Below are positions 15,728 to 49,374 of a stretch of 54,610 nucleotides of DNA, piece by piece. The DNA comes from a virus. Its lineage: Duplodnaviria; Caudoviricetes. The notes under the pieces were generated by a model. That model made no database searches. It was not told the DNA's origin and worked only from the letters and a program-made list of their open reading frames with translations. A program made the position numbers and the translations under genes. Position 1 is the stretch's first letter. Every line of letters begins with the position of its first letter. Where the stretch lies: positions 1 to 54,610 of the IMG/VR virus record IMGVR_UViG_3300011423_000010. One strand, written 5' to 3'.

Positions 15728-15885
15728 ATTATTAACCCTTTAAATCGCACTATTATGGGACCTTAGAATAAGAATTATTTATTTATTACTTACTTACTTT
15801 TTTTACCAATCTAAAATATAGTTAACCTACTATCATTTAAACAAATTTAATCGAACAAAAAAATTTAATTTTAAAACACATTATT

Positions 15886-16239
15886 ATGTCAGATTTACAA
15901 AATGCATCAGGAACTCCAAAATTTCAAATGATTTTAGCTTCTAGCGGTCAAGGATTACTTGACAAAAGAGCAGAGCTTATCTACAAAAAAACTAAAGCTG
16001 CCCTTGAGGACAAGCTTACATCTTTAAATCGTAGAAAGGATTCAATTGAATATGAAATCTTAAACTTAACAGATTTGTCTGTTGAAACTAAAGATTCATT
16101 GCGTCCTGGAGATAAAAGTTACAATCCAGTTGCTTGGGTTGATAAGTTGTGTGATTTAACAATGCAACTTGAGTTGTTGGAAGTAGAAATTAGAGTGGCT
16201 GAAGAAGTTCAGGCAGAGTTCTTTTCAGTAACTGAATAA
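15886..16239 (+). CDS. Helical protein, paralog of 26677-26979
   Basis: KF..I..S...L..K.K..LE...YN...L...I..A..V..EFF. Confidence 0.7.
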   Translation: MSDLQNASGTPKFQMILASSGQGLLDKRAELIYKKTKAALEDKLTSLNRRKDSIEYEILNLTDLSVETKDSLRPGDKSYNPVAWVDKLCDLTMQLELLEVEIRVAEEVQAEFFSVTE

Positions 16240-16241
16240 GC

Positions 16242-16898
16242 ATGTGCAACAAAAAAGTCTATCTAGCTAAGTCTAACTTAGCTAGTGGACTTGATGTTGA
16301 ATATGTCAAGTCCAATTTATCCCGTATTGAAGGAATTGATATTGTTGAATATGGGATGGGTGTAAGTCCTTCTGCATGTGCAGCTCTTGTGATTGTTACT
16401 AAGACAGATGATTTATTAGATAGTGATGAGATATATGTAAATAAACACATAGCTACTATTCTTGTTGAGTTCTTAGAGAACGAAGATGAAAATATGGAAG
16501 AACCTGGAGATCATGTTTATATATATGCAGGTAAAGGCTCTTCAGCTGGTACTTCTGATATTGAAAAAAGTACTCCTCTTGCAGTAATGTTTACTGATTT
16601 TTGGGAGGTTGAGGAAGAAGATGCTAGTTTTGATAAACATACTGTAATAGAATATGATAATGATTCAACAGAGTTGTTATCACATATTAGTGCAGATCTT
16701 GATGCTCCATTTAATAGATGGAAAAAAGTATCAAGACACTATCAGCCTGAACCAGAATTTGCAGTACCTAAACTTGAAGATTTAAACAGGTGGAAATGTT
16801 CTCATCCTATTCATAATCATGAAGAGAAAGCAAAACCAGAAAACATTAGCTCTTTTCAAGGTGACTTGAGAATGCTTCTTATTGGAAGAATGAAATAA
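16242..16898 (+). CDS. Acidic hypothetical protein
   Basis: 218-aa ORF; N-terminus KVYLAKSN suggests a Rossmannoid/TIR-like beta-alpha start (weak). Confidence 0.65.
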   Translation: MCNKKVYLAKSNLASGLDVEYVKSNLSRIEGIDIVEYGMGVSPSACAALVIVTKTDDLLDSDEIYVNKHIATILVEFLENEDENMEEPGDHVYIYAGKGSSAGTSDIEKSTPLAVMFTDFWEVEEEDASFDKHTVIEYDNDSTELLSHISADLDAPFNRWKKVSRHYQPEPEFAVPKLEDLNRWKCSHPIHNHEEKAKPENISSFQGDLRMLLIGRMK

Positions 16899-16901
16899 AA
16901 T

Positions 16902-16936
16902 AAAACTCTCCTCATATACAATTGAGGAGAGTTTTT
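16902..16936 (+). terminator. Intrinsic terminator
   Basis: AAAACTCTCCTCA...TGAGGAGAGTTTTT. Confidence 0.75.
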
Positions 16937-16975
16937 AAATTAGAAAGCAATTAATAAAACAACAAATTTTAAAAA

Positions 16976-18121
16976 ATGACGAATTCAGAAATCGAACAAG
17001 AAAATTTTGTCCTAACAGATAAGTATGTCTTTATGGATAAAGCTATGGCTATTCTTGATGTTGCATTAAAGACTGAAAAGAATGTTATATTATATGGCCC
17101 AGGAGGTCATGGAAAATCAGAGCTTAGTTATGATTTTCTAGTTGAGAAAGGAATTATTCCTTATGTATTAACTTTTGGTACAGGTATGACCGCTGATAGG
17201 TTATTTGGTGGATTGAATATTCCTGTTCTTCAAAATGATGGTAAGATTGAGTATTTAGTGGAGAATAGTTTTATGAACCATGAATATGTAATCTTTGAGG
17301 AAATGATGGATGGTCAAGACCATTTGTTAGAACAATTGAAAGATATTTTATCTTCAGGGTATTTCAGAAATGGTACTCAGGTATTCAAGATTAAAACTAA
17401 GCTTATTATTGGGTGTACCAATAAAACAAGAGCAGAGTTTTCTAAGAATAATTCATTGAGAGCTTTAATGGAAAGATTTCCATTAGAATTGAATGTGATG
17501 TGGGATAACTACACTGAAACTGCTTATAGAACTTTGCTTGAAAAAAGATTTGGAGAAATTGACCCAATGATGCCTTTTCTTCTTCAGGAGTATTCAAGGA
17601 ATAGTATAGTTATCAGTCCAAGGATTGCTTTAGATAGTTATGAAATCTTTGAAGTATGTGGGCCAGATTCTTTAATGTTTATTGCTGAATTTGTGCAGAA
17701 ACCAAACTTAATTAAGGACTCTTTGAAGAAATTTGAAGCTACTATTAAGTTTAAACAAGCAGGAGCTGAGGTTGAAGAGCTAATTGCTAAGTTAACAGCA
17801 AATGATAATAGAACTGTTGATAAAAAGAGAATATTTTTAGAAGATTATAAAGCACTTAATAGTGCATATTCTAAAATTAAATCTTTTGTGGTAACTGATG
17901 ATTTAGCTGCTACTCATGCTTTAATGGTCAAAAAGATTTCTGATGAAATTGGTAATAATTCTGAAAGAAAGCAAAACTGTGAAATTAAAGTAAGAGAACA
18001 TGAAACAAAATCTCTTAATAAGAAACAGAGAGCTGCTATTGTAGATGTTATAGGTTCAGTACAAGCACAAGCTGAACAGCTTAAAGATGCTTTAGTAAAT
18101 GATAAAGACTATCCTTTCTAA
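16976..18121 (+). CDS. MoxR/RavA-like AAA+ ATPase
   Basis: Walker A GPGGHGKS, Walker B VIFEEM, sensor CTN, ALMERF arginine finger, ISPR. Confidence 0.85.
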   Translation: MTNSEIEQENFVLTDKYVFMDKAMAILDVALKTEKNVILYGPGGHGKSELSYDFLVEKGIIPYVLTFGTGMTADRLFGGLNIPVLQNDGKIEYLVENSFMNHEYVIFEEMMDGQDHLLEQLKDILSSGYFRNGTQVFKIKTKLIIGCTNKTRAEFSKNNSLRALMERFPLELNVMWDNYTETAYRTLLEKRFGEIDPMMPFLLQEYSRNSIVISPRIALDSYEIFEVCGPDSLMFIAEFVQKPNLIKDSLKKFEATIKFKQAGAEVEELIAKLTANDNRTVDKKRIFLEDYKALNSAYSKIKSFVVTDDLAATHALMVKKISDEIGNNSERKQNCEIKVREHETKSLNKKQRAAIVDVIGSVQAQAEQLKDALVNDKDYPF

Positions 18122-18123
18122 TT

Positions 18124-19635
18124 ATGGGAGGGCGTTCTAAACCTTGGTTCTCACCAAGGGCAGTAGTGGGTCCTATTAAGACAGGACCTAATTCTTATCG
18201 TTATGAAGCTAGGAAGAACTTTGACAATGAACTAGATGAATCTGAAGACATTAATAGTGACTTCTATGCTAGTAAGTTTGAGTATCCTAGTCATGTATCT
18301 TGGAGAGAGAAAAGAAAAGCTGATAGAGAGAAAACTTATAATCATGCTTTACAAGCTAAACCTAAGTTTGCTTGGACTCCTACAAGATGGTCAACTTTCT
18401 CTTTTGATTCTTTTCTAGGTACAAATGTTGATGATAATTCTAATTTGTTTGTGAAAGAGCCTGAGAGTTATGTAACTCCAACTGTTTCAGAGATTAGGGC
18501 TAAAACTAACTATTGGACTGATACGGATATTAGGAGAATTAAAGAAATAGCAAGAGCTTGTTATCTAAAAATGATTGATGACAAAGATTATATTGCTGAA
18601 AAGTTCAAAAATCAAGAAGATTCTGGTTTATCTGAAGAAGCTTGGAATGCAAGAAAAGCAATCATTGATAATGTGTATGAAGATTTTATTCCTGGAATTA
18701 GTCCTTTAGAACAAGCTTTAGCTGTTAACACTCGTATTAGAGATGCTGATGCTGCTAATCATAAGCGTGAATATAAAGCAGATAAATATCAATCTACATA
18801 TTTCAGATTTAGAAGAGAGAACTATGCTGATCCTGTATTAAACAATCAACTTGAAAAGAATGCTTTGAGTGGTAAAAACAAATTGGAAATTCTGGATAAG
18901 ATTTCTATTATTGGAGAGCTTGGTACTCAATTCAAGGTTGAAAAAGAATGTGGAGAAACAGAAGTTGATAATTCTAATCATTTCAAGATGAAGGTTATGA
19001 GAGATTATGACCAGCTTCAGAGAATTGAGATTTATCAGAGGTTATTTCCTAATTTTGATCAGAAGTTCTTCACTAAGAATCTAATTGTTAATGTTCCTGT
19101 TAAGACTAGTGAGTTAAAACAGAAGATTATATTGATAGTTGATTATTCTGGTAGTATGGACTATGAGAACAAGCAAAAATGGGTAAATGCTCTATTGATT
19201 GACAGATTTAGATATGTTATAAAAGGAGAGGCTGAAATTTTCTTTAGTTTCTTTGTATCTAGTCCTAATCAATTACATTTTACTCATCTTAAGAATGAGG
19301 AAGATGTTAATGAATTCTGGAAAAAGTTCTCTAATCATCCTTGTGGTTCATTCACTGATATGGGTAGAATTGTGACTCATATTAGTGATGAGATAATTAA
19401 GAGAAAGAGGTTATGTAATCTTGACATTGACTTATCTGCAGAGAAACCTGAAATTCTAATCATTAATGATGGTCAAGATGAGGTAGGATACAAATCATTT
19501 CCTTATAAAGTGAATGCTATTAGCTTAATGTCTTATAGTAGTGAACTTCGAAAACTGTGTGTAAACTCAGGAGGTAAACAAGTAAGGATATATGAAGATG
19601 GTAAAATCAAAACCTATGCTAAAGAAGTAGCATAG
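18124..19635 (+). CDS. VWA (MIDAS) domain protein, MoxR partner
   Basis: IVDYSGSM, GSFTD, IINDGQD at C-terminus; adjacent to MoxR. Confidence 0.85.
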   Translation: MGGRSKPWFSPRAVVGPIKTGPNSYRYEARKNFDNELDESEDINSDFYASKFEYPSHVSWREKRKADREKTYNHALQAKPKFAWTPTRWSTFSFDSFLGTNVDDNSNLFVKEPESYVTPTVSEIRAKTNYWTDTDIRRIKEIARACYLKMIDDKDYIAEKFKNQEDSGLSEEAWNARKAIIDNVYEDFIPGISPLEQALAVNTRIRDADAANHKREYKADKYQSTYFRFRRENYADPVLNNQLEKNALSGKNKLEILDKISIIGELGTQFKVEKECGETEVDNSNHFKMKVMRDYDQLQRIEIYQRLFPNFDQKFFTKNLIVNVPVKTSELKQKIILIVDYSGSMDYENKQKWVNALLIDRFRYVIKGEAEIFFSFFVSSPNQLHFTHLKNEEDVNEFWKKFSNHPCGSFTDMGRIVTHISDEIIKRKRLCNLDIDLSAEKPEILIINDGQDEVGYKSFPYKVNAISLMSYSSELRKLCVNSGGKQVRIYEDGKIKTYAKEVA

Positions 19636-19654
19636 GTTTTTAATTCTTTTTATT

Positions 19655-19888
19655 ATGACTAGAGAACAATTTAATAGTTTGCAAACTGGAGACCATCTTT
19701 TGATGTATAATGCTAGAGTTAGAGAGGTATTAAAGGTAACTCAATGTTGGAATCATTGGGTACAATTAAAACCAAGAACTTCTATTACATTGAAAAAAGT
19801 TGGTGGAAGATATAATACTACTTATGTTTATGGTGACATGAAGAATAAGGTAGTAGGAGTTTTTAGGGTTAAAAAAAATCCCCATTAA
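19655..19888 (+). CDS. Small basic SH3-like hypothetical protein
   Basis: LQTGD.L pattern, 77 aa. Confidence 0.5.
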   Translation: MTREQFNSLQTGDHLLMYNARVREVLKVTQCWNHWVQLKPRTSITLKKVGGRYNTTYVYGDMKNKVVGVFRVKKNPH

Positions 19889-20247
19889 TAGTGGGGATTA
19901 CCTTTATGTTTACCAGGGTTATCTTTAACTTTCTTTCGTCCTTGAGTACCTTCTTTATCATTGTCACGTTCTTTTTTATTCTTGTATACGTGAACATCTT
20001 TATGTTGAGAGTATACTACTCTTACATGATTATCAAAGTCATCACCATTTACCCATTCTTCTCTATTATTAATGTATCTAATGTGGATACGAGTATTGGT
20101 AACAGCTAGGATATATACCTTATATGAGTTATACTCATAGTAATCACCCACACAAATATGGTGGTTATAACATTTTATAGGGCCTTCAGTGTGTACTGCA
20201 CAAGAGGCAACAACCATAAACATCAATAGTAAGATTAGCTTTTTCAT
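19885..20247 (-). CDS. Lipoprotein, lone antisense gene
   Basis: MKKLILLLMFMVVASC lipobox; charged tail ending NPGKHKGNPHY. Confidence 0.7.
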   Translation of the reverse strand: MKKLILLLMFMVVASCAVHTEGPIKCYNHHICVGDYYEYNSYKVYILAVTNTRIHIRYINNREEWVNGDDFDNHVRVVYSQHKDVHVYKNKKERDNDKEGTQGRKKVKDNPGKHKGNPHY

Positions 20248-20264
20248 TTTATTTAGATTTTAAA

Positions 20265-20272
20265 CAAAGTTA
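20265..20272 (-). promoter_or_regulatory. Bacteroidota -7 promoter element (TAACTTTG)
   Basis: TAnnTTTG about 18 nt upstream of the lipoprotein ATG. Confidence 0.55.
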
Positions 20273-20302
20273 CGTAAATTTATTAACCAAAAAAAAACAA
20301 CA

Positions 20303-20770
20303 GTGAGAACGAACGAAGAAATTTTAGAAAGACATGCATCTGAAGATTCATTTGATATTTTCAATGCACAAAGAACAGCTCTTTTATGTATGTTACCATA
20401 TGAAATAGCTAAACCTCATCTGGACCCAGTCTATGTACAAAAACATGAAGATGGTACTCTGCAAGATGATGAGAAATGGAAGGAAGGTTGGGATGTTAAA
20501 GACCAAATCATTGATTATCTTCCTCATATGTATAAAGCTATGAGAGCTCATAATGATTTTGAAATCAGTGTGGGTGTATGTTATCTTAGAATCTGGGTAT
20601 GGACAGAAGACTCAAGCTTCTATGATGTAATTGACCATATGTTTGAAAGCGAAATGCTTGATGCAGGATTACTAACTAATGCCATAGCTAAACATTATGG
20701 ATATGAGGATTCTATAACTGACATTCCTTTTGAGGAAATAAATACTGACGAAGATGAAACTACTACTTAG
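20303..20770 (+). CDS. Acidic hypothetical protein
   Basis: 155-aa ORF, GTG start after A-rich leader. Confidence 0.65.
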   Translation: MRTNEEILERHASEDSFDIFNAQRTALLCMLPYEIAKPHLDPVYVQKHEDGTLQDDEKWKEGWDVKDQIIDYLPHMYKAMRAHNDFEISVGVCYLRIWVWTEDSSFYDVIDHMFESEMLDAGLLTNAIAKHYGYEDSITDIPFEEINTDEDETTT

Positions 20771-20954
20771 AATAATCGTAAGTGTATTATCATTATTTGG
20801 AGCTGTGCTCTCAGTAATGAATTTGTTTAAGGCACTCAATAAAGGAAATCTCTTTGTGAGTGCTGTTTCAATAACCTGTTTAATTATAATTGTTTATTTT
20901 ACTATAAAAACGAAACTGTTCACTGAATTTAAATCTAAAAAAGAAGAAGAATGA
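20754..20954 (+). CDS. Two-TM membrane protein
   Basis: Hydrophobic helices. Confidence 0.55.
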   Translation: MKLLLRIIVSVLSLFGAVLSVMNLFKALNKGNLFVSAVSITCLIIIVYFTIKTKLFTEFKSKKEEE

Positions 20955-21193
20955 TGATCATTTATTTAATTATTACGTTTTTAGTTACCTATTTTGCTAT
21001 TAAAAAGTGGAGTGATGAGATGTTAAAGAAGGTTAAAACTTCTAAATATCGTGAATGGGCAGATACACCAGAATTCTGGTATATAGTTCTTACAATAGTA
21101 TTTTGGCCTGTAGTTGTCCCAGGCTATTTTCTATGGAAATTAATGGACAAAATAACAAACAAAATTAAAAAAAAAGATGAAGAAAGTCTTTAG
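20951..21193 (+). CDS. Two-TM membrane protein
   Basis: Hydrophobic helices, FWP motif. Confidence 0.55.
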   Translation: MMIIYLIITFLVTYFAIKKWSDEMLKKVKTSKYREWADTPEFWYIVLTIVFWPVVVPGYFLWKLMDKITNKIKKKDEESL

Positions 21194-22010
21194 TATTGCC
21201 TTATTCGGAGCATTGTTAGCAATGTCTTCATGTACAACAGCTGATTCGGGAGAAGTAGCATTGATTGTAGATCAAATTGGAAACTCGAAAGGTATCCCAA
21301 ATGTCCAGATGGAATCAGGATTCATTATGTATTTTCCACCAACCCAGGATGTGTTTACCTATCCTACAAGCGTGCAACATGTTGAGTGGCTCAAAGAAAC
21401 AACTTCACAAATTGATGTTACCTCAGCAGATGGAGCATCCTTTGGGCTAGATGTAGCCCTAAATGTAAGATTGGTAAGAGATAGAGCTGCAGAACTATTC
21501 ATTAAGTACAGAGTTCCAATGGAAGATTTAATAAAAACTCGAATTAGAGCCCTGGTTAGAAAGGAACTTGTTGATAATTCCGTTAACTTTGCATCAGATA
21601 GTTTGTTGCAACATAGAAATATCTATGAAACAAATGTATCAAGAACATTAGCTGTAAGGCTAGAGAAAGAAGGTTTTCTTCTTGATAACTTATCTATTTT
21701 GAAGATGGACTTACCAGAATCATATAGAAATGCTATCAATAAGAAGATTAGGGTTATACAGGAAACAGCAACTATTAGAAGCCAAACTGAACAGGCTACT
21801 CAAGAAGCTCTAAGAAAGGTAGCAGTAGCTAAAGGTAATTATGAAGCTGCTCAATATGATGCTAAAACTAAAGAAGTTATGTCAGCACCTAAAATGTTAG
21901 AACTATATAGAGCTGAAACAGAAAGAATTTGGGCTGAAAAAGGTACAAGTCCTTATGGAGCAAACAATGTATTTGGTACTTCTTCAGGATTAATTCTGAA
22001 TAGGTCATAA
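21177..22010 (+). CDS. SPFH/band-7/prohibitin family protein
   Basis: N-terminal anchor/lipobox MSSC; YPTSVQ, TSADG..LDV, LPESYRNAINKK, AVAKG.YEA coiled tail. Confidence 0.88.
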   Translation: MKKVFSIALFGALLAMSSCTTADSGEVALIVDQIGNSKGIPNVQMESGFIMYFPPTQDVFTYPTSVQHVEWLKETTSQIDVTSADGASFGLDVALNVRLVRDRAAELFIKYRVPMEDLIKTRIRALVRKELVDNSVNFASDSLLQHRNIYETNVSRTLAVRLEKEGFLLDNLSILKMDLPESYRNAINKKIRVIQETATIRSQTEQATQEALRKVAVAKGNYEAAQYDAKTKEVMSAPKMLELYRAETERIWAEKGTSPYGANNVFGTSSGLILNRS

Positions 22011-22025
22011 AATTAAAATCTAAAC

Positions 22026-22230
22026 CCTGATAGAAACTATATAGTAATATATAGAATGGATATAGCTGTATGAGATATGCTATTATATACCATTGGGAGC
22101 TCTCAGCAGTGATTCGAAAAGCTATGCAGTTTTAAAACTCTTATAGAGCCTTACAAACTAGAATCGCGTGACCTTACCTCTTATACAAGCTCCGTAACTG
22201 ATAACTCGGTAAGCTATAAGAAAAGGTGCT
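22026..22230 (+). ncRNA. Candidate structured RNA (multi-stem, pseudoknot), family unknown
   Basis: Stems GTGATTC(22109)/GAATCGC(22161), ACCTT..TCTTATA/TATAAGA.AAGGT, and GGAGCT(22096)/AGCTCC(22188) crossing the latter; G-U pairs favour the plus strand. Confidence 0.5.
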
Positions 22231-22255
22231 AATTTTTAATTTAAAAATAAATGTT

Positions 22256-22657
22256 ATGAAAAAGTTACTTTTGGGGCTTATGCTCCTGGTCTGTTTGTCT
22301 GGTTTCAGTCAAACTAAAATTCTTGGAGTGTACAACACTGGTAATTCTACTGGTGCTGAAGCTATTTTTTCTTTTAAACCTTTAGAAGAACGTGTGTATT
22401 CTTTAGGAGCAGGTATTACTGGAGGTAATAACTTCAAAACTGAGTATGGTATCCTTACTCAGGATGTTACCAAAAACTTCAGTATTGGTGGAAAAGTAGG
22501 TGGATGGAACCCATGTGGTCATGGGCAAAATAATACCTATCTGTACTATGGAACAGTTGCTTATCTTCAATTTACAGGAAAAGATAAAGGCTGGGTATTA
22601 GGTACAGAATATGATAATCTTAAACATTTTAGTTTTGGTTTAGGTTATAAATTTTAA
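22256..22657 (+). CDS. Small outer-membrane beta-barrel protein
   Basis: Sec signal ending GFS-Q; alternating Gly/aromatic strands; C-terminal FSFGLGYKF beta-signal. Confidence 0.7.
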   Translation: MKKLLLGLMLLVCLSGFSQTKILGVYNTGNSTGAEAIFSFKPLEERVYSLGAGITGGNNFKTEYGILTQDVTKNFSIGGKVGGWNPCGHGQNNTYLYYGTVAYLQFTGKDKGWVLGTEYDNLKHFSFGLGYKF

Positions 22658-22676
22658 GCATAGATTACAAAGTTTT

Positions 22677-22710
22677 ATACCCACTCCTGAAAAGGGGTGG
22701 GTATTTTTTT
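22677..22710 (+). terminator. Intrinsic terminator
   Basis: ATACCCACTCCT-GAAA-AGGGGTGGGTAT then T6. Confidence 0.85.
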
Positions 22711-22740
22711 AATATAAATGGAACACAAAATCGAACAAAA

Positions 22741-23496
22741 ATGAAAAAATTAGAAATTAAAACATTGGGAGCTAACTCAAAGAAAGGATTTTCTTTATTA
22801 GCAGGCATAAACAGACCTGTAGTGCCTAGTCATGTTACACGAATGGCTAAATCAATTGAACGTATGGGTGTTATTAGACCTGTAGTGGTGGCTAAAGCTG
22901 ACTTTTTAGGAGTTAAAGATGCTTTGTATATAATAGATGGTCAACATTTATTTCATGCTCTATTGAGACTTGGAATTGATATTCCTTATACCGAAATAAA
23001 TGTTTATGATCATATAGACTTAGTGGATAATATCTCCCTGCTAAATAGTTCTTCTAAATCATGGTCCATGAGAGATTATATACAAGCTTGGTCATCAATT
23101 AGTGAAGACTATGATAAATTGCAGAATTATTTCAATATTTATGACATTGAATTACAGCAATTGGCAGAAATCTTAATGGAGAACAGTTCTAATGCTAGAG
23201 CTGGAGGTAATAGTAATATAACCAGAGTGATTAAAAAAGGTCAATTTTCAATTGAAGATGAAGATTTGGGTGTATCATTGTTAAATAAGGCTACTGATGC
23301 TATGAAAGTAATTCCTAGATTAGATAGATCTTCTAATAGAATGTTTATTTCTAGTTATGTAAATTTTGTTACAACAGAAAAAGGTTATAATCATTCTGAG
23401 TTCTTGAAAGCTTTGATAGCTAATAAAGATAAATTTAAGCTATCAACACAAGACCCAGATGAGTTTAAAAAATTATTTAAAATCATTTTAAAATGA
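22741..23496 (+). CDS. ParB/Srx-like N-terminal domain protein (DGQH type)
   Basis: NRPV..SHV..MAKSI...G..RPVVV...YIIDGQHL..AL; LNSSSKSWS..DY. Confidence 0.75.
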   Translation: MKKLEIKTLGANSKKGFSLLAGINRPVVPSHVTRMAKSIERMGVIRPVVVAKADFLGVKDALYIIDGQHLFHALLRLGIDIPYTEINVYDHIDLVDNISLLNSSSKSWSMRDYIQAWSSISEDYDKLQNYFNIYDIELQQLAEILMENSSNARAGGNSNITRVIKKGQFSIEDEDLGVSLLNKATDAMKVIPRLDRSSNRMFISSYVNFVTTEKGYNHSEFLKALIANKDKFKLSTQDPDEFKKLFKIILK

Positions 23497-23774
23497 AAAC
23501 TGAACAAGATGGAATTTTAGAAAGCTTAGGAATGACTGCAGAACAACTCTCAGAGAGATGTTCTGAGTTTCCTATGTTTATTGCCAAAAAAGCACTACAT
23601 AAAGAAGAAATAGTGCCTTTAGACCTTGTAGAATTTATTAAAAATTTTTATACCTATAATGAATTGATCTACTTTTCTCTTACCTATTTGGTGGAGAAAA
23701 GTTCTAAAATCATGGAAGACCCTATGGCTCAACAACTTCTTAAAGAGTGGGGTAGAGCTAACAGAAATAAGTAA
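23493..23774 (+). CDS. Hypothetical protein
   Basis: 93-aa ORF, ATGA-coupled. Confidence 0.55.
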   Translation: MKTEQDGILESLGMTAEQLSERCSEFPMFIAKKALHKEEIVPLDLVEFIKNFYTYNELIYFSLTYLVEKSSKIMEDPMAQQLLKEWGRANRNK

Positions 23775-23793
23775 CAATTTTAAATCAAATATT

Positions 23794-24696
23794 ATGTCAA
23801 GTTCAAAAACAAATTCAGAATTATTGCACTCTCTAAAACAATCAAACAAGATTGCAAGAGAAAGCAGAGCTAAAAAGTTAGGTTTTAGCTCTTACAGTGT
23901 GTTATTAGCTTTTCTTGAAGGAGCTATATTTAGTGGGAAAGGGAATGTTCTCTATTCCTCACCTGTTAGTGGTAGTAGTAGCTCTACTAGCTCTAGTAAG
24001 CCTAGCACTAGTAAGACTAGTAGTAGTACTAGTAAGTCAAGTAAATCTACTGCTAAAGTAGAAACTAAAAAGTCTTCCAGTAGCAAACGTATAACTATAC
24101 ATGTTGTAGATGTATTGGATGCTAGTGGGTCAATGAGTGGTGGTAAGTTTGTTTCTGCCATTAAGGGTATTAACATGGGTATTAAGCAAATGAAAGAGGA
24201 TATTATTCCTGTAGATTATACTTACACTCTATGTGATTTCTCTGATGATATTATCTTCAGAAATATTAAGACTCCTATTAAAATTGTTGAATCTGTGAAA
24301 GGAGAAACAAGAGGAAGTACAGCTTTATTTGATGCTATTGGTATGTCTATTGATCATATAAAAAGTGGTCTTAAAAGTGATGAGAAAGTATTGGTAAATG
24401 TTTATACTGATGGCCAGGAGAACTCTTCAAGACATTATAAAGGAGCTCAAATTGCCAGTGCTATTAAAGAATTATCTACTCAAGGGTGGACATTTACATT
24501 CATAGGTACTGATGTAGATGTTAAATATGCTCAAAGTATCCTACATTTTCACGAATCTAATACCTTGGTTCATGATAATACTGCACAAGGTATGGAAAAA
24601 TCATTTACTGCAAACAATCTATCAAGAAGTGCATACTCTTCTAAGGTTTCTAAAGGAGAAGATGTTAGCATAGGCTTCTACAAAGACATTAATTAA
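23794..24696 (+). CDS. VWA domain protein with Ser/Thr/Lys-rich linker
   Basis: DVLDASGSM, GSTALFDAIG, YTDGQENSS. Confidence 0.9.
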   Translation: MSSSKTNSELLHSLKQSNKIARESRAKKLGFSSYSVLLAFLEGAIFSGKGNVLYSSPVSGSSSSTSSSKPSTSKTSSSTSKSSKSTAKVETKKSSSSKRITIHVVDVLDASGSMSGGKFVSAIKGINMGIKQMKEDIIPVDYTYTLCDFSDDIIFRNIKTPIKIVESVKGETRGSTALFDAIGMSIDHIKSGLKSDEKVLVNVYTDGQENSSRHYKGAQIASAIKELSTQGWTFTFIGTDVDVKYAQSILHFHESNTLVHDNTAQGMEKSFTANNLSRSAYSSKVSKGEDVSIGFYKDIN

Positions 24697-24715
24697 TCTT
24701 TAAATTTTTAATATT

Positions 24716-25315
24716 ATGACTTCAAAAACAGCAAAAGCTCCTTCAACAACAACAGGAGTAAGCAAAGGTTCAATCCTTAGTGAAACTTCTTTCTATGTAG
24801 TGAAAGAGGTAAAAAGTGATGTGGTTATTGTGACAGATGATTTTGGTCACGAAATTACATTAGGTAAAAAATATGTAGACCAAATTACAGTGTCTGCAGA
24901 TTGGTATGATTCTGAGGAACCAAAATCAATGACTGAATTGGCAGAGATTTTTATTAACAGCCCTCGTATTGCTATGTCTGTATCTTTCATTACGAAATCT
25001 ACAGAGAAAAGTAAGAAAGAGTTTGAATCTGAAAAAGCATCTAAAATTCAAGAAATTCAAAACGCAAGTTTGAGTAGTGCTTCAGCATTGTTAAGTGATT
25101 TGATTGAAAATCCTATTACTAAAATAATTCCTGGACATTTGAGAGTTATCAAAGGTCGTCATTATGGAAAAGTTGATGATTTAGGAAGAATTCATTTCAT
25201 TGATATGGAACTTGGTCGTGATGCAACTAAAACTTATGATACACGTTCCAGACAAGTGGATCCAAGAACTCTTCAATGGTTAATCGTAAATGGGGTGAAG
25301 TATTTTCTAAAGTAA
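24716..25315 (+). CDS. Conserved phage hypothetical protein
   Basis: LSETSFY...KGRHYG..DDLGR..F.DME...RQVDPRTL.WLIVNGVKY. Confidence 0.7.
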   Translation: MTSKTAKAPSTTTGVSKGSILSETSFYVVKEVKSDVVIVTDDFGHEITLGKKYVDQITVSADWYDSEEPKSMTELAEIFINSPRIAMSVSFITKSTEKSKKEFESEKASKIQEIQNASLSSASALLSDLIENPITKIIPGHLRVIKGRHYGKVDDLGRIHFIDMELGRDATKTYDTRSRQVDPRTLQWLIVNGVKYFLK

Positions 25316-25316
25316 A

Positions 25317-26813
25317 ATGCCAACAATTGAAGAGGCTCAAATAAGAGGCTTTCTTACTGCCAAAAGGATTAAATTACCTCATATTGATAGAACTATTGAA
25401 CTTCCTGATGATATTATATTAAAGAAACAAGGATGTGGTAATATAATTCTTGAAGATATTAATGGAATTTCTTCTTTTAAGGAAAGTAAAGAAGATTCTT
25501 TTTCTTGGACAGCAATAGTTTATTTTGCTGGTAGTAAGAAATGGGCAACTATCACTCAACACAGAGAACTTATGAAATACAAAGAGCATTGGTTAGATGG
25601 AAGATATCTCAAGGTAATTGATGACAGCTGTATACAACATTATCATTTAAAAAATGGTGATTATTTATTATTTTCACATGTGGATTCTGCTGATAATGAA
25701 CATTGGGGAGATTCTACTTATAAAGAGGGACACTATTATGGTGGTAAGGCTCATAATAAAAATATGTTTGAACTTATGCCTGAAGGTTTTGTGCCTCCTA
25801 AAGTAAGTGTGTTTCCTGTATTGAAAAAGTTTCCTGAAAGAGGAGTATGTTGGAATCCAACTCCAGAATTAAAAAGCTATTTGGAGAAAAATCGTCAGTA
25901 TTCTAGTGGTATAATTAAAGGTTACAGAGGAATAGCTTGGAACTTAGATAGTGTATGGGGAGTAACTTCAAGTAGTAGTCAATCATTATATGACATTTCT
26001 CAATTACAACCATTTATAACTACTCCTGTAGAACCATCTAAAATAGGATGGGGGTATTTTAAAGCACCAACTATTGATAATTTTGAAATAGGTAGGTATT
26101 ATTATGTTAGGTTTATTGATGATTCTACTAAATTCATGGTTACAAAATGTACAGGATTTAATACTAATGATAAAGAACGTATTAATGGACCATATTTATC
26201 TAATATGAAAGGTAAATTTAATTTTGAGCCAAGGAATACTCCTTGGATTAAAGGTGGTAGAGAAGTACGTTTAGCATCAGAGGAGGAAATAACTTGGTTA
26301 GATGCTTGTATTGAAGCAGGGAAATTTATAGAGCTGGAAAATGTCAAAAGAAATCCAGAGCCTCTACCTGCATATGTGAAGGAATATCCTTTAACTCCAG
26401 ATGATTGTTATTTTCCTGATAAATGGGCTTTAAAAGTTGGTCAGCATAATAGAGCTATTATTGCTGAATTTCTTAGAGACCATAGTTATGAATGGTATCA
26501 TTATAAAGAAACTTGGGAAGTTAGTCCAGGACCAGAGAATGGTAGGTATAATAATTATTTTCATTATCCACCAACAGGAGAACCAATGCATTCAGATTTG
26601 AAGGTACAAGAAGGTTATACATTAATTACAACGGAACAATTTAAACAATTTTATAAAACAAAAAATTTTAAAGAAGATGAAAAAAGATCAGGAAGTACCA
26701 GCACAGGGAGCATCATTAAAATATGCAGACCTAATTTCGAAATCAGACACTCAGATCCAATCAGAGCAGTTAGCATTAGATGTACAAAAAGCAAAATCTC
26801 AGTTGGAGGTTAA
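25317..26813 (+). CDS. Large mosaic hypothetical protein
   Basis: 498-aa aromatic-rich multi-module ORF; 3' end overlaps next gene by 137 nt. Confidence 0.7.
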   Translation: MPTIEEAQIRGFLTAKRIKLPHIDRTIELPDDIILKKQGCGNIILEDINGISSFKESKEDSFSWTAIVYFAGSKKWATITQHRELMKYKEHWLDGRYLKVIDDSCIQHYHLKNGDYLLFSHVDSADNEHWGDSTYKEGHYYGGKAHNKNMFELMPEGFVPPKVSVFPVLKKFPERGVCWNPTPELKSYLEKNRQYSSGIIKGYRGIAWNLDSVWGVTSSSSQSLYDISQLQPFITTPVEPSKIGWGYFKAPTIDNFEIGRYYYVRFIDDSTKFMVTKCTGFNTNDKERINGPYLSNMKGKFNFEPRNTPWIKGGREVRLASEEEITWLDACIEAGKFIELENVKRNPEPLPAYVKEYPLTPDDCYFPDKWALKVGQHNRAIIAEFLRDHSYEWYHYKETWEVSPGPENGRYNNYFHYPPTGEPMHSDLKVQEGYTLITTEQFKQFYKTKNFKEDEKRSGSTSTGSIIKICRPNFEIRHSDPIRAVSIRCTKSKISVGG

Positions 26814-26979
26814 CATTGCTCAAACAGCTTTTGATTTAACCAAAGCTACACAAAAGTATTATGATTGTATGCGTGCTAATCCTTATAACTTGCAAAGAGA
26901 GATTGAGGCTTATCAAGAGGTGAATAGACTTAGTGAAGGATTGGAGTATGCTAAAAAGGTTTTGGAGGAACGATTCTGA
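26677..26979 (+). CDS. Helical protein, paralog of 15886-16239
   Basis: KY..LI..S...L..QK.K..LE...YN...L...L..A..V..ERF. Confidence 0.7.
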   Translation: MKKDQEVPAQGASLKYADLISKSDTQIQSEQLALDVQKAKSQLEVNIAQTAFDLTKATQKYYDCMRANPYNLQREIEAYQEVNRLSEGLEYAKKVLEERF

Positions 26980-26983
26980 AACC

Positions 26984-27256
26984 ATGATACTCACATATAG
27001 CGATGAAGGACTTCCTATTGAGTTAGATGAGAACAATTCTTTAATTATGTATAAAGACACTTCGGTGTCTTTTTACATTATTAAAAAAGCTTTTGAGAGT
27101 GATTTAGATAGAGTACAATTAACAAACACATTAGAGTTAACAAAAAAAAATGGTTTTGTAACCTTAGGGTGCTTAACATTAACGGAAAACAAAGTAAAAC
27201 AATTAATTAAATTAGTATGGAAGCAATTAAAATCGTACAACAAAGTTGGGAAGTAG
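26984..27256 (+). CDS. Hypothetical protein
   Basis: Start likely MILTY at 26984. Confidence 0.55.
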   Translation: MILTYSDEGLPIELDENNSLIMYKDTSVSFYIIKKAFESDLDRVQLTNTLELTKKNGFVTLGCLTLTENKVKQLIKLVWKQLKSYNKVGK

Positions 27257-28617
27257 AGAAAAAAGCTGAATTGGTAAAACTTGGTCAAAGTACCAAACCT
27301 TACAATGAGATTCTAGCTCATTTAGAAAGTGAAATTGAAAATGCTGGTCGTATGACCAATTTCGATTACAAAATTCCATGTTTCATGAATGATGGTATCT
27401 ATCAGTTGAATAGAGCTATTGAGGAAATTATTGGTGTGGCTCATGTTCAAGCAGGTAAACAACCATCAGGTGGTGGGGACAGACCTATGGACACAATTGA
27501 TATTCAATTGGCAAACGGTACTCGTAAAAAAGTTCCTTATGGTAATATTGATTTACCAGACATGGGAGAAGGTGCTATTATCCAAATTGGATATGCTAAT
27601 AACTTAAAAGTTCTTCATGTGAGAGGAAAATGTCAATTCAAATTTAATCCTTTGATTGACAAGATTATTGCTAGAACTAAAGAATTGTTAAACACTGATA
27701 GTATCTACAAAAATCAAACTTTTGAAATCAATGCCAGTATTGATGGTGGTCAGCCACAAATTGTGGATTTGAAAGGATTGGATAAAGAAATCATGATTCT
27801 TTCTCAAGAAACTGAAGGAGCATTGAGTCCTTTATATGCAAGAATTCTTCATGCAGAAAACTGTAAAAAAGCAGGTATTCCAATGAAATTTGGTGCAATC
27901 CTTGAGGGACCATATGGTACTGGTAAAACTTTGTTAGCATTTAAGCTGGCTCAATTGGCTAATGAGCATAATTGGGCAGCAATTTATTTGAAATCTCCAG
28001 AGTTGCTTGCTGACACTTTGAGAATGGCTAAAACTTTGGACAAAAATGGTAATGGTATCATTGTTTTCACTGAAGATATTGACCAGGTTACCAGAGGAGA
28101 GAGAACTGTTGCTCTCCAGGATATTCTTAATACCTTAGATGGTGGAGATACTAAGGACATGAATGTAATTGCTTTGTTCACTACTAATCACTTGGAGCAA
28201 ATTGATCCAACTTTCCTAAGAGGAAAAAGAATTGGTACAATTATCAGCATGTCTTATTTGGATGCTTTTACAGCAGAGAAATATGTTGCTGCATTCTGCA
28301 AGAAAATCAATCTTGAAGGAAACTTTACTCCTGTATATGAATTGATAGGTAGTAGTAACATTGCTCCAGCCTTTATGGCAGAGATTATTGAAAATGTTAA
28401 GTCTACAATGGTTATCCGTGGAGACAATACTGTTGGTGCAGATGAATTCTTAGGTTGTGTTAAATCTTATTTGAGACAAGTTGCTTTGTCAAGAACTAAA
28501 GATAATTATGTAACCAATGAACTAGCTTTGGCTAACTCTTTGAAAGCTGTACTACATGATGTAGGATATTTCACTGAGGTTGAAAAAGTTGTAAGCGATG
28601 TTTTAAGTAATTCTTAA
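27217..28617 (+). CDS. Classical AAA ATPase (no TM or protease domain)
   Basis: Walker A GPYGTGKT, Walker B VFTEDID, ILNTLDG, TTNHLEQIDPTFLRGKRI second region of homology. Confidence 0.9.
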   Translation: MEAIKIVQQSWEVEKKAELVKLGQSTKPYNEILAHLESEIENAGRMTNFDYKIPCFMNDGIYQLNRAIEEIIGVAHVQAGKQPSGGGDRPMDTIDIQLANGTRKKVPYGNIDLPDMGEGAIIQIGYANNLKVLHVRGKCQFKFNPLIDKIIARTKELLNTDSIYKNQTFEINASIDGGQPQIVDLKGLDKEIMILSQETEGALSPLYARILHAENCKKAGIPMKFGAILEGPYGTGKTLLAFKLAQLANEHNWAAIYLKSPELLADTLRMAKTLDKNGNGIIVFTEDIDQVTRGERTVALQDILNTLDGGDTKDMNVIALFTTNHLEQIDPTFLRGKRIGTIISMSYLDAFTAEKYVAAFCKKINLEGNFTPVYELIGSSNIAPAFMAEIIENVKSTMVIRGDNTVGADEFLGCVKSYLRQVALSRTKDNYVTNELALANSLKAVLHDVGYFTEVEKVVSDVLSNS

Positions 28618-28628
28618 TTATTTCCAGT

Positions 28629-28660
28629 AAATAGGAAGGGATAAAACCCTTCCTATTTTT
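28629..28660 (+). terminator. Intrinsic terminator
   Basis: AAATAGGAAGGG-ataaaa-CCCTTCCTATTTTT. Confidence 0.8.
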
Positions 28661-28685: not shown

Positions 28686-29216
28686 ATGAATTGGCATCAA
28701 AAATATAAGGACAATAGAACCTTTTCTGAAAAGTTAGCTGATAATGTAGCCAGTATTATGGGTAGTTGGAGATTTATTATTATTCAAACAATTATTGTAT
28801 TTTTATGGATGGTAATGAATATCTTAGGTATAATGTATGAATGGGATAAATATCCTTTTATTCTCTTAAATCTATTATTCAGCACTCAAGCTGCTTACGC
28901 AGCACCTATTATTATGATGTCTCAAAATAGACAGAATGCAAGAGATAGAGTTAAAGCTGAAGCAGATTATGAAACTAATAAGGAATCAAACTTTGAAATA
29001 GGAGAAATCCTTAAGAGACTAGAAAGAATTGAAACTGAGAAGTTAGACAAGATTATGAATAAATTGGATATACAGGAACCTGAACAAACAGATGAAGATC
29101 CAATGGAAGCTTTTGAAGCAGCAAGTAAAATTTATTTTAAATCTAATGAATTTATGGAAAGATTAGCTTTTGAAGAAGGGGCTAAATGGCAGGCTAAACA
29201 ATTTAAAAAACAATAG
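28686..29216 (+). CDS. DUF1003 family membrane protein
   Basis: RTF.EKLAD.VA...GSW.FI...D.YPFILLNL.FSTQAAYAAPIIMMSQNRQ..RDR. Confidence 0.88.
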   Translation: MNWHQKYKDNRTFSEKLADNVASIMGSWRFIIIQTIIVFLWMVMNILGIMYEWDKYPFILLNLLFSTQAAYAAPIIMMSQNRQNARDRVKAEADYETNKESNFEIGEILKRLERIETEKLDKIMNKLDIQEPEQTDEDPMEAFEAASKIYFKSNEFMERLAFEEGAKWQAKQFKKQ

Positions 29217-45324: not shown

Positions 45325-45710
45325 GCAAGCTAAAATTAAATATAGGAGGAGAATTAGAAACAGGAGATGTAGTAGGTGTAGCATATAATAACTGTGTTAC
45401 ATTTGGTTGGTATGTTGACCAAGGAGTGAATGGTTCTTTGAAATTTATAACATTAAATAAACCTAAATACACAGAAGATCAATATAAAGATTTTCTTAAT
45501 GGTAAAAATGTTAACTGGTTAGCAAAGAAATTTGCTAATGGATTACAATTTAAGAATATTGGAAAAGACTATATCATAGCTTTTGGGCCTCATGATAATA
45601 GAGCTTTTAAGATAGCAGATCCAGAAGAATTCTTTAAAGACAGTGCACAAGAAAATATGTATAAGGACAGCAAGAGAATATTAACGAACTTAAAATTTCC
45701 AGCAAAATGA
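45321..45710 (+). CDS. Hypothetical protein (LETGDVV SH3-like start)
   Basis: 129-aa ORF coupled to rIIA. Confidence 0.6.
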   Translation: MSKLKLNIGGELETGDVVGVAYNNCVTFGWYVDQGVNGSLKFITLNKPKYTEDQYKDFLNGKNVNWLAKKFANGLQFKNIGKDYIIAFGPHDNRAFKIADPEEFFKDSAQENMYKDSKRILTNLKFPAK

Positions 45711-47992: not shown

Positions 47993-48003
47993 AAAAAGAA
48001 ATT

Positions 48004-49374
48004 ATGAGCAAAGATTGGATGAGCCTAGATTGGTTCAAAAAGAGAGTAGAAAATTCGGTAGACAGAGTGCTAGATGAAAGAATTGCTAAAAAGGTTGATA
48101 AGGTTTTGGATAAGCTTATGGAATCAAAAGTAGAAAAACCTTATTCTACTTTAAAAATGGTGAATAATAATTTGACTGTAGTTCTTTCAAATGGAAGTAT
48201 TCTAACTAAACCTGAAGCCACAGAAGAGCATTATAACAGGATTAAAGAAGCTACCAGTAAAGAAGAAATATTAGCTATTATTCAGGACAAAGAAGTTGCT
48301 AAAGAGAAAGAAGATCAAGTTAGAGAGGCTAAGAAAATAAGCCACCTAATTGATGGATTCAAACTCTTAGGCACACTTAAAGACTTTACTGTAGAAGATA
48401 GCACTGTTTATCTTAAAGGCACAAGTAGAAGTATACCACCTTTATTGGTTGATAAGTTTACAGAGGTTATTGGAAGATATGCCTCAGAAGCAGATATAGA
48501 GGATTCTTTGAGCAAGGATGATGAATATCAAGGGCTTAAGAATTTCTTCATGTGGTGTTGTCTAAATCCTAGAGCTGAAGTAGCTAAAGAATTGTATAGA
48601 TTCTTAACTGATAATAGCTTTAGAATTACTAAACAAGGTTTCTTTGTAGCTCTTAGAAATGTTGTGACAGTAGAATCAGATAATACTGTTGTAGATTTTG
48701 TTAGTAATACCTATAACAAAGTTAAAGCTGTTTGGAAGAAGAATCCATATGACTATATTGTATTAAAACTAGACTCAGGAGGGTTTGAATTACATCCAAA
48801 AACTAATGAATCTAAAGTTTTAGGAATAGGGAAATCTCTAGGAGTTCTTACAGATTTATATCTGGATTTGCCTAATATGAAGGAGAATAGATTCACAGAT
48901 GCTTGGACAGGTACTTTTGATATTAGAGTGGGACAAGTTGTAAGTATGCCAATGAAATCTTGTAACTGGAGTACACAAGATTGTGCTGCAGCAGGATTGC
49001 ATTTCACAAGTGATCAGATTCATTATGTAGGATGTGGAGATACTTCAGTATTAGTACTGATTAATCCAATGAAAGTAGTGGGAATTGGTAAACATAAAGG
49101 TAGATGTTATGAGTATCTTCCAATAATGACAGTTCCTAGATATGAAGCAACAAGTATCTTACATGATATTGCTTTTGATACTTTGGAACTAGATGAAGAT
49201 TATGCTGTTAATGAATTAGAATCTCTTGCTGAAAAAGCTAAAGAAGGATTTACTGCTGAAGCAAGTAAGTATGATTTTAATTTCCCTAGTATATCTTCTG
49301 TAGAAATCAACAGTATAGTATTATCCTTAAGTGAGATGAAAAAAACTATAGATCACAGGGTTATAAATTGGTAG
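48004..49374 (+). CDS. rIIB: rIIB-like protein
   Basis: NP......LY.FL....F.IT..G.F.A, TD..TGTFD..VG.VV.M...C......C.AGLH, INP..VV, KGRC.EY. Confidence 0.85.
   Translation: MSKDWMSLDWFKKRVENSVDRVLDERIAKKVDKVLDKLMESKVEKPYSTLKMVNNNLTVVLSNGSILTKPEATEEHYNRIKEATSKEEILAIIQDKEVAKEKEDQVREAKKISHLIDGFKLLGTLKDFTVEDSTVYLKGTSRSIPPLLVDKFTEVIGRYASEADIEDSLSKDDEYQGLKNFFMWCCLNPRAEVAKELYRFLTDNSFRITKQGFFVALRNVVTVESDNTVVDFVSNTYNKVKAVWKKNPYDYIVLKLDSGGFELHPKTNESKVLGIGKSLGVLTDLYLDLPNMKENRFTDAWTGTFDIRVGQVVSMPMKSCNWSTQDCAAAGLHFTSDQIHYVGCGDTSVLVLINPMKVVGIGKHKGRCYEYLPIMTVPRYEATSILHDIAFDTLELDEDYAVNELESLAEKAKEGFTAEASKYDFNFPSISSVEINSIVLSLSEMKKTIDHRVINW

Follow-up and report, generated by a model that had tools for sequence, protein, structure and literature searches.

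The window analysed here is the whole of IMG/VR virus record IMGVR_UViG_3300011423_000010, a stretch of 54,610 bases with an estimated completeness of 46%, a G+C content of about 31% and nearly every gene on the plus strand. Our subject is the region between positions 15,886 and 28,617, and above all two adjacent genes in it, which encode a MoxR-class AAA+ ATPase (16976–18121) and VWA1, a protein with a C-terminal von Willebrand factor A (VWA) domain (18124–19635). These and all other features below lie on the plus strand unless stated otherwise. The genes of the region are co-oriented and tightly packed. A preliminary description had interpreted all of them as one ATP-dependent protein-remodelling or counter-defence apparatus, composed of two parallel AAA+/VWA modules with paralogous helical proteins as adaptors. 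The open reading frames (ORFs) it named all appear in our ORF listing, on the plus strand and where it had placed them or close by.

The MoxR ATPase comprises 381 amino acids. It scored above the curated Pfam cut-offs for bpMoxR, its best family (3.4e-13; 49.6 bits versus 27), and for AAA_5 (5e-6; 27 bits versus 22), and the nearest solved relative of its profile in a search of PDB profiles was RavA (E-value 1.5e-8). The earlier assignment of this protein to the MoxR-type AAA+ ATPases is borne out by these matches. Its Walker A motif is GPGGHGKS, and E108 and E109 are conserved in the homologue alignment. In contrast to RavA, the phage protein possesses neither LARA nor other RavA-specific domains; the NCBIfam model for RavA gave 31.7 bits against a cut-off of 681, with the match limited to residues 30–200 of the AAA core, which places the protein outside this equivalog. 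The protein has no relative among GenBank phages at E≤1e-5. The best sequence similarity to MoxR proteins of cultured viruses was a weak tblastn match to MoxR-like ATPases of Sulfolobus monocaudavirus (E-values of 2e-3 to 4e-2). A pattern-limited scan of genome contigs, which is no proof of absence, found no cellular relative for the MoxR alignment.

VWA1 comprises 503 amino acids and has no Pfam match. Residues D340, S342, S344, T411 and D449 of its metal-ion-dependent adhesion site (MIDAS) are invariant in all 45 aligned homologues. The AlphaFold2 model (predicted local distance difference test, pLDDT, 77.7) comprises a disordered part (residues 1–101), a helical domain (approximately 102–270) and an alpha/beta domain (320–503), and the chain ends at about residue 500. 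Foldseek matched this model to VWA domains in the PDB with E-values down to 1.8e-5 (NorD of NorQD, 9qhd_G and 9qh6_G; the MIDAS domain of Rea1). In BFVD, long matches to many viral VWA proteins were obtained, including ORF892 of Acidianus two-tailed virus (ATV; E-value 1.6e-7) and CobT-like proteins. The VWA1 profile gave only weak VWA matches when compared with the PDB (E-values of 0.026–0.73). Although Pfam misses the domain, the invariant MIDAS residues and the fold matches agree with the VWA call made for this protein earlier.

The conservation of the two genes was surveyed with an alignment of five MoxR homologues, which retrieved 82 IMG/VR stretches; 80 loci were kept, and their neighbouring genes were identified by iterated hidden Markov model searches of all ORFs within ±10 kb. 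Several of these loci are near-identical, so the counts reported below are not independent. VWA1 was located directly downstream of MoxR, with its start within −120 to +200 nucleotides of the MoxR end, in 76 of the 80 loci. Three of the four misses are contig ends and the remaining one is fragmented. MoxR–VWA1 is thus a genuine, strongly conserved pair, for which an ATP-dependent chaperone or remodelling role is reasonable by analogy. Twenty-nine of 83 MoxR ORFs (for example, L044:9647–10987 and L068:9653–10987) carry an N-terminal extension of about 85 amino acids with the pattern KYRFKTxEEF...W...MN...GQDVPD...W.F. On one contig, a VWA1 homologue at the contig end (L101:3–551) is split into two ORFs (3–221 and 333–551); this may be due to a frameshift or a deletion.

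Mechanistic precedents for MoxR–VWA pairs are RavA–ViaA, NorQ–NorD, CbbQ–CbbO, Rea1–MIDAS and ATV p618/p892. The order seen in the window, an AAA+ gene followed by a gene for a protein with a helical N-terminal domain and a C-terminal VWA domain with a complete MIDAS, is the same in RavA–ViaA, NorQ–NorD, CbbQ–CbbO and CoxD–CoxE. By analogy with NorQ–NorD, RavA–ViaA, CbbQ–CbbO and ATV p618–p892, the MoxR ATPase would form a ring, onto which VWA1 would dock via its helical N-terminal domain. In the most likely course of events, the metal-ion site of VWA1 would then hold a client protein by one of its acidic side chains, and ATP hydrolysis would remodel this client, that is, assemble it, disassemble it or load it with a cofactor. 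The pair in the window differs from the cellular ones in being phage-encoded and in having lineage-specific partners that belong to no known family.

These partners are helical protein 1 (117 amino acids; 15886–16239) and an acidic protein (218 amino acids; 16242–16898). Their genes were detected in six of the 80 MoxR loci, always together and immediately upstream of MoxR, and the acidic protein was seen solely with helical protein 1. Neither gene occurs in the loci with the KYRFKT-extended MoxR. The four-gene block of helical protein 1, acidic protein, MoxR and VWA1 is also retained in G002, a phage whose 136-kb genome is complete and has terminal repeats; its replication proteins are only 24–33% identical to those of the window. 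The acidic protein deserves its name (isoelectric point 4.71). About 50 residues at its N-terminus are strongly conserved (KKVYLAKSxLASGxDVEYVKS...). It had no match in Pfam, PHROG, NCBIfam, PADLOC or the PDB profiles, the last yielding only noise at an E-value of about 0.8.

Helical protein 1 is predicted to form two long helices around a loop whose residues L59, L61, T62, D63, L64, S65, V66, S71, L72, R73 and P74 are invariant among 28 aligned close homologues. The central loop reads LxLTDLSV...SLRP. Homologues fall into 42 clusters at 90% identity. Within IMG/VR, the close family was found on six contigs only, and on each of them it adjoins the acidic-protein gene and the MoxR–VWA1 pair. 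Helical protein 1 corresponds to no family in Pfam or PHROG. An exhaustive profile search at E≤1e-3 revealed a wider family of 468 representatives with a length of about 110 amino acids; the top 150 are all 86–167 amino acids long, with no fusions to large proteins among them. Scans of 35 members of this wider family against Pfam and PHROG returned the labels small terminase (one member), Mu Gam/Gp157-like (one member) and ABC_trans_N (two members), which we regard as noise from stray-member matches. A single distant member used as query matched no viral contig, and tblastn searches with two members gave no matches among GenBank phages. In locus L102, which has no MoxR–VWA1 within 10 kb, a 127-amino-acid protein (L102:6338–6718) matches the C-terminal half of the helical-protein-1 profile (hhalign probability 95%) and is devoid of the invariant loop.

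A 13-bp hairpin followed by a U-run, resembling a terminator or attenuator, is located between the acidic-protein and MoxR genes (16902–16935). It has a folding free energy (dG) of −19.5 kcal/mol and a z-score of −6.7, and none of 200 shuffled sequences folds as well. A hairpin with a U-run occupies the same gap in six of six relatives (L004, L005, L006, L007, L024 and L025), its position being conserved and its sequence unrelated. From this arrangement it would seem that helical protein 1 and the acidic protein are produced at higher levels than MoxR–VWA1 or independently of it. They most likely represent a lineage-specific client or adaptor, present in excess over the enzyme; the invariant acidic loop with D63 belongs to helical protein 1. 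The fused KYRFKT domain would be the client or adaptor part in other lineages. A complex prediction for VWA1 and the acidic protein, with helical protein 1 as the partner and Mg, scored 0.00 in two runs without controls and therefore counts neither for nor against binding.

The second VWA protein, VWA2 (300 amino acids; 23794–24696), was recognized by PF00092 (5.1e-6; 27.2 bits versus a cut-off of 23.8) and phrog_7371 (4.8e-28), in agreement with the preliminary description. It consists of a short N-terminal domain, a Ser/Thr-rich linker and a VWA domain with the motif DASGSM. VWA2 is adjoined by a 199-amino-acid protein (24716–25315), whose AlphaFold2 model (pLDDT 87.7) displays two small beta-barrels joined by helices, the N-terminal one Tudor/KOW/SH3-like and the C-terminal one WYL/Sm-like. 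Foldseek found nothing for this model at E≤1e-3. VIA-align Z-scores did not exceed 7.0, the matches being WYL, Tudor, KOW and Sm-like barrels; since such values are within the range that this tool calls common, we assign the protein to no family.

A separate survey seeded with the 199-amino-acid protein comprised 15 loci. VWA2 was immediately upstream in ten of them and one small ORF away in another (L102). In two loci the genes are arranged in the order VWA2–MoxR–VWA1–199-amino-acid protein, and in one (L113) VWA2 was undetected. The remaining locus contains a single ORF of 419 amino acids (L115:9050–10306), in which a VWA2-like domain with the motif LDTSGSM is fused to the beta-barrel protein, thus providing a Rosetta-stone link between the two. 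Among the 80 MoxR-seeded loci, VWA2 and the 199-amino-acid protein were each found in three. A whole-record profile search did not detect MoxR in any of five further phages with the VWA2–199 pair, four of which are 100% complete; as a positive control, the same profile found MoxR in four of five known carriers, the fifth being cut at a contig end. Relatives of the classical AAA ATPase described below were also absent from the four complete genomes, and the fifth phage has only a distant AAA protein, 32% identical and located elsewhere. Because four complete genomes carry the VWA2–199 pair with neither MoxR nor AAA, VWA2 appears to have a partner of its own and to need neither ATPase. The VWA2 family also stands alone in cultured phages. 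The proposal that VWA2 and the classical AAA ATPase constitute a second AAA–VWA module parallel to MoxR–VWA1 is therefore not upheld.

The next two genes overlap. A 498-amino-acid protein (25317–26813) is followed by helical protein 2 (100 amino acids; 26677–26979), and the last 45 codons of the former are read in another frame within an overlap of 137 nucleotides (26677–26813). Homologues of the 498-amino-acid protein were detected in L004, L045, L101, L102, L104, L107 and L108. Helical protein 2 always follows and overlaps such a homologue, and overlaps of 137–185 nucleotides in different frames were present in six of six phages, the other five being L004 (17119–17270), L045 (6146–6285), L101 (6750–6889), L102 (11962–12131) and L104 (9015–9199). 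The tail of the 498-amino-acid protein is better conserved within the overlap than its body. Stop codons in the relative frame of the overlap occur elsewhere at 0.159 per codon, which gives a chance of about 4e-4 for 45 open codons. Judged from these sequence features, the overlap has the appearance of genuine dual coding. At the ATG of helical protein 2 there is an A6 run; a programmed frameshift there (26677), joining the two ORFs, was considered and rejected, since an ATG of its own is present in each homologue of helical protein 2. The 498-amino-acid protein and helical protein 2 were each found in two of the 80 MoxR loci. A search with helical protein 2 alone as the query recovered no IMG/VR locus. 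The ESM Atlas models of the 498-amino-acid protein and the acidic protein were poor (pLDDT of 0.46 and 0.32, respectively), with all structural matches below a template-modelling (TM) score of 0.5 and no usable feature match.

The last gene of the region encodes an ATPase of the classical AAA clade (466 amino acids; 27217–28617), as proposed earlier. It matched PF00004 (4.7e-13; 50.2 bits versus a cut-off of 21.2), which defines one AAA domain at residues 228–346, and phrog_10440 (9.2e-56). The nearest solved relatives are Cdc48/p97 and the proteasomal ATPases (Rpt). The Walker A motif GPYGTGKT, the Walker B motif E-D-I-D (residues 286–289) and the second region of homology are invariant in nine of nine sequences; the usual form of Walker B is D-E-x-D. 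All three elements are shared with the orphan AAA proteins of phrog_10440, such as Littlefix gp69 and KPP25 ORF048 from Pseudomonas phages and the AAA-ATPase of a Gordonia phage, which are 29–31% identical to the window protein over 85–96% of its length. The family occurs in 75 GenBank phage records, and no annotated VWA or MoxR gene was seen near AAA in the two neighbourhoods inspected (Littlefix and KPP25).

In the lineage of the window, the AAA gene is always preceded by an ORF of 86–90 amino acids (paired in L007, L045 and L101–L105). In the window this ORF is listed with a GTG start at 26933; comparison with the homologues makes the ATG at 26984 the most likely start, yielding a 90-amino-acid product (26984–27256). 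This conserved ORF distinguishes the lineage from KPP25, where an upstream ORF of similar size was considered as a homologue and discarded (BLASTP E-value 2.9, no similarity). The 90-amino-acid ORF and AAA were each found in two of the 80 loci within 10 kb of MoxR, and AAA is absent from the complete genome G002, which keeps MoxR–VWA1. The AAA gene is followed by the terminator reported earlier, a 12-bp hairpin with a U-run (28629–28658; dG −17.3 kcal/mol; z-score −3.9).

Between VWA1 and VWA2 lies a cassette centred on an SPFH/Band-7 lipoprotein (277 amino acids; 21177–22010). Its earlier identification is well founded, with matches to Band_7 (6.7e-19; 69 bits versus a cut-off of 23.6) and phrog_200 (1.2e-35). 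It is immediately preceded by two small ORFs of 66 and 80 amino acids (20754–21193), which are hydrophobic by eye and probably encode membrane proteins; homologues precede SPFH in L044/L050 and L051/L053 as well. SPFH occurs within 10 kb in 16 of the 80 MoxR loci, and in 13 of these its start is 1.6–2.8 kb downstream of the MoxR end, shortly beyond VWA1. Further downstream, a putative ParB-like protein (251 amino acids; 22741–23496) was identified by PHROG alone, with ParB-like families matching at 6e-17 to 8e-4 (best phrog_12305, 6.1e-17) and no match in Pfam or NCBIfam; we keep the previous annotation as a putative one. The gene is present in six of the 80 MoxR loci, in varying positions.

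The two helical proteins had been described as paralogous partners of the two modules. A BLASTP comparison of them yielded an E-value of 0.58 over 10 residues. Homologues of helical protein 2 comprise five clusters at 90% identity plus five copies in related loci. The hhalign probability was 0.87% with five helical-protein-2 sequences, 1.5% over 99 co-linear columns with ten, and 2.0% after the helical-protein-1 profile had been widened to 35 diverse members. When the columns were shuffled as a control, three of 200 shuffles attained the observed score of 17.2 (mean 11.4, standard deviation 2.1), and the reversed profile scored 9.9. The resemblance is real as a co-linear pattern but marginal, and, unlike what is usual for true homology, it gains no strength from broader profiles. 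We therefore consider the paralogy of the two helical proteins unsupported at the sequence level.

Our interpretation, to which we assign a probability of roughly 60%, is that the region has a mosaic make-up, with five or more units inherited separately, the MoxR–VWA1 chaperone pair being one of them, and is not a single two-module machine. The first unit would consist of the MoxR-class AAA+ ATPase and its VWA/MIDAS co-chaperone VWA1, and the second of VWA2 and the tandem beta-barrel protein, an apparently ATPase-independent pair. The 498-amino-acid protein with the overlapping helical protein 2 would be the third. The fourth would comprise the 90-amino-acid protein and the putative Cdc48-like unfoldase AAA, which is on its own in many phages, and the fifth the SPFH membrane cassette, from which the ParB-like gene is probably separate. 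Of the remodelling system proposed earlier, the part that stands is the MoxR–VWA1 pair with its function by analogy; the single integrated apparatus does not, because the units assort independently across relatives. In the MoxR-seeded survey, MoxR and VWA1 are adjacent in 76 of 80 loci, and the other neighbours occur in 2–16 of 80. The firm absences of units rest on five complete genomes (G002, G005, G007, G008 and G009).

Several points weigh against the mosaic interpretation. The units stay near each other in some relatives: the order is 498-amino-acid protein–helical protein 2–SPFH–90-amino-acid ORF–AAA–MoxR in L045 and VWA2–MoxR–VWA1–199-amino-acid protein in L079/L081, and SPFH follows VWA1 in 13 of the 80 loci, so some functional coupling is possible. 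Several loci terminate at contig ends, where absence of a gene inside the flank is weak evidence. Most of the relatives are related phages sharing a genome layout, and both synteny and its loss are therefore partly due to descent. With regard to the MoxR–VWA1 unit itself, the Walker B motif of the MoxR ATPase is, by eye, F-E-E instead of the usual D-E, which bears on its predicted ATPase activity. Finally, the helical-protein-1 family with its 468 representatives far exceeds the set found beside MoxR and may have a function of its own that is unrelated to MoxR.

The best explanation for the setting of the region is that it belongs to the early or replication-side portion of an uncultured phage of about 110–120 kb. 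On its 3' side are genes for PolA, a DnaB-like helicase, a primase, a Sak4-like protein, rIIA/rIIB, an exonuclease and a UvsX-like recombinase, and no structural genes were found among the ORFs examined in the window. The nearest cultured relatives of PolA are those of crAss-like phages and a Leptolyngbya phage. Since the identity is just 28–30%, membership in the Crassvirales, assumed in the preliminary description, is not established, and neither is Flavobacterium as the host.

This setting bears on the idea that MoxR–VWA1 is a chaperone for virion assembly. Pairs of chaperone and co-chaperone genes are likewise encoded by ATV (p618/p892), group 2.2 jumbo phages and Bacillus phage 0305phi8-36, and such pairs have reportedly been noted in papers on a halovirus and a Staphylococcus jumbo phage. 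Iyer et al. (2021; PMC7824862) proposed a role in virion assembly for the MoxR–vWA pairs of group 2.2 jumbo phages. The pair of phage 0305phi8-36 is noted in PMC2147016, and precedents including ATV p618/p892, which is linked to tail development, are cited in PMC7824862 and PMC7159879. The structural match of VWA1 to ATV ORF892 and the weak similarity of MoxR to the Sulfolobus monocaudavirus ATPases are consistent with such a role. Unlike the known viral pairs, however, the pair in the window is located among small early-type ORFs, upstream of the replication, rIIA/rIIB and UvsX-like genes and not among structural ones, which argues mildly against virion assembly. VWA1 also lacks the N-terminal metallopeptidase that Iyer et al. 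(2021) describe for the jumbo-phage vWA protein (no HExxH by eye and no Pfam match). Overall, we regard an assembly function as unlikely.

Alternatively, MoxR–VWA1 and the SPFH cassette may act together at the host membrane and, much as RavA–ViaA acts on respiratory complexes, remodel a membrane complex of host or phage origin in the course of host takeover, superinfection exclusion or counter-defence. The position of SPFH directly after VWA1 in 13 loci hints at a membrane link in a minority of the phages, and in the window the two small membrane-protein ORFs and the SPFH lipoprotein are found 1.5 kb downstream. An association of RavA–ViaA with the membrane is reported in PMC9489729, PMC3893208 and PMC10585395. 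Against this, 64 of the 80 loci have no SPFH gene inside 10 kb, and in the window a two-way hairpin (19877–19899) and a minus-strand gene separate VWA1 from SPFH. By eye, neither VWA1 nor MoxR has a predicted membrane segment. The PADLOC defence models matched none of ten proteins, save that the P-loop of AAA matched IetA locally (residues 188–246). A joint action at the membrane is thus doubtful.

A more specific proposal, which we offer with low expectation, is that helical protein 1, the acidic protein, MoxR and VWA1 are a phage counterpart of bacterial MoxR–vWA ternary conflict systems. The abundant helical/acidic pair would serve as a decoy or sensor-adaptor, its acidic loop gripped by the metal site of VWA1, and the ATPase would use it at an early stage of infection to take apart a defence or membrane complex of the host; the KYRFKT domain, the VWA2–barrel pair and the dual-coded 498-amino-acid protein/helical protein 2 pair could be interchangeable adaptors. 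Kaur et al. (2020) describe bacterial 'FtsH ternary systems', in which a second AAA+ protein and several helical proteins are added to MoxR–vWA; the third component of this type has two AAA domains of the FtsH type, of which the N-terminal is inactive. As in the ternary systems outlined there, bpMoxR is the best Pfam family of the window ATPase and the vWA protein includes a helical region on its N-terminal side; as in the FtsH type, further helical proteins and another AAA protein, of FtsH type, are encoded nearby. The window departs from that account in several respects. Its P-loop is the standard GPGGHGKS and not GXXXTAKS, and AAA rarely co-occurs with MoxR (two of 80 loci; missing in G002). 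Pfam finds one AAA domain in the window AAA, which may also set it apart from the FtsH type. With respect to the beta-propeller type of the same text, no propeller follows the VWA domain of VWA1, whose model ends there, and no TPR/propeller third component was detected by Pfam in the 19 ORFs scanned. No ternary-system Pfam domain other than bpMoxR was matched among these ORFs.

The model with which we started, one apparatus formed by all genes between 15886 and 28617, draws on some of the same observations and has become improbable, being already weakened by the co-occurrence data. It would account for the dense, co-oriented genes, for module-2 genes abutting MoxR in L045, and for the order VWA2–199-amino-acid protein–498-amino-acid protein–helical protein 2–90-amino-acid ORF–AAA, followed by SPFH, which is kept in the closer relatives L101, L102 and L104 only, L103 being devoid of the 498-amino-acid protein/helical protein 2 pair. 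The end-to-end hhalign alignment of the two helical families, with a score reached by few shuffles, and the composition of the FtsH ternary systems as given by Kaur et al. (2020) are also in its favour. The same alignment has a probability of 0.9–2% with no rise for broader profiles. In addition, VWA2 is partnered by the 199-amino-acid protein and not by AAA, complete genomes carry the VWA2–199 pair with neither ATPase or MoxR–VWA1 with no AAA, AAA is near MoxR in two loci and alone in many cultured phages, and domains of ternary systems beyond bpMoxR are missing among the scanned ORFs. The hairpin at 28629–28658 and another at 22677–22704, the strongest terminator-like hairpin of the region (dG −20.4 kcal/mol), bracket the stretch from the ParB-like gene to AAA, which may be co-transcribed; this would explain the packing without invoking one machine.

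That the pair has an auxiliary metabolic function in metal chelation or cofactor insertion, in the manner of CobS/CobT or BchI/BchD, is highly improbable: the architecture of an AAA+ protein followed by one with a C-terminal VWA domain is shared, and the BFVD matches of VWA1 include viral proteins named CobT (ranks 22 and 33), but Pfam and NCBIfam gave no match to CobS, CobT or Mg-chelatase, the best matches being bpMoxR, AAA_5 and RavA, and no gene for a third, substrate-binding subunit is evident nearby.

MoxR–VWA pairs as such are on record from archaeal viruses and from jumbo phages, and to our knowledge a client is known in no bacteriophage. The pair itself is therefore already known in viruses; the variant described here, placed in a mosaic early region, is new, and a limited literature search found no papers on this particular family. 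It is common in uncultured phages of about 110–135 kb (82 IMG/VR stretches), with interchangeable putative adaptors. A cultured member, if found, would offer a convenient means of studying why such a chaperone is needed by a phage. Equally useful is the negative result, namely that the picture of two modules with paralogous partners stems from the packing of genes in a mosaic region.

The remaining genes of the region are small. VWA1 is followed by a basic 77-amino-acid ORF (19655–19888; isoelectric point 10.3), for which no homologue was found in the relatives examined. The next ORF, of 120 amino acids and with a lipoprotein-like signal recognized by eye (19885–20247), is the only sizeable minus-strand ORF of the region, and the two-way hairpin mentioned above is located at its 3' end. 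An acidic protein of 155 amino acids (20303–20770) belongs to phrog_5706 and is also present in G001 and L101–L104. Downstream of SPFH, a 143-amino-acid protein (22226–22657) has a signal peptide, a beta-rich appearance by eye and the C-terminus ...GYKF; its resemblance to a small outer-membrane barrel hints at a Gram-negative host. The strongest hairpin follows this gene. Outside the region, rIIA- and rIIB-like genes (45707–49374) are kept in G001 and G003 at 50–66% identity. A DUF1003 membrane protein (28686–29216; Pfam 4e-36) is encoded on the 3' side of the AAA terminator, and its homologues likewise follow the AAA–SPFH stretch in L102 and L104.

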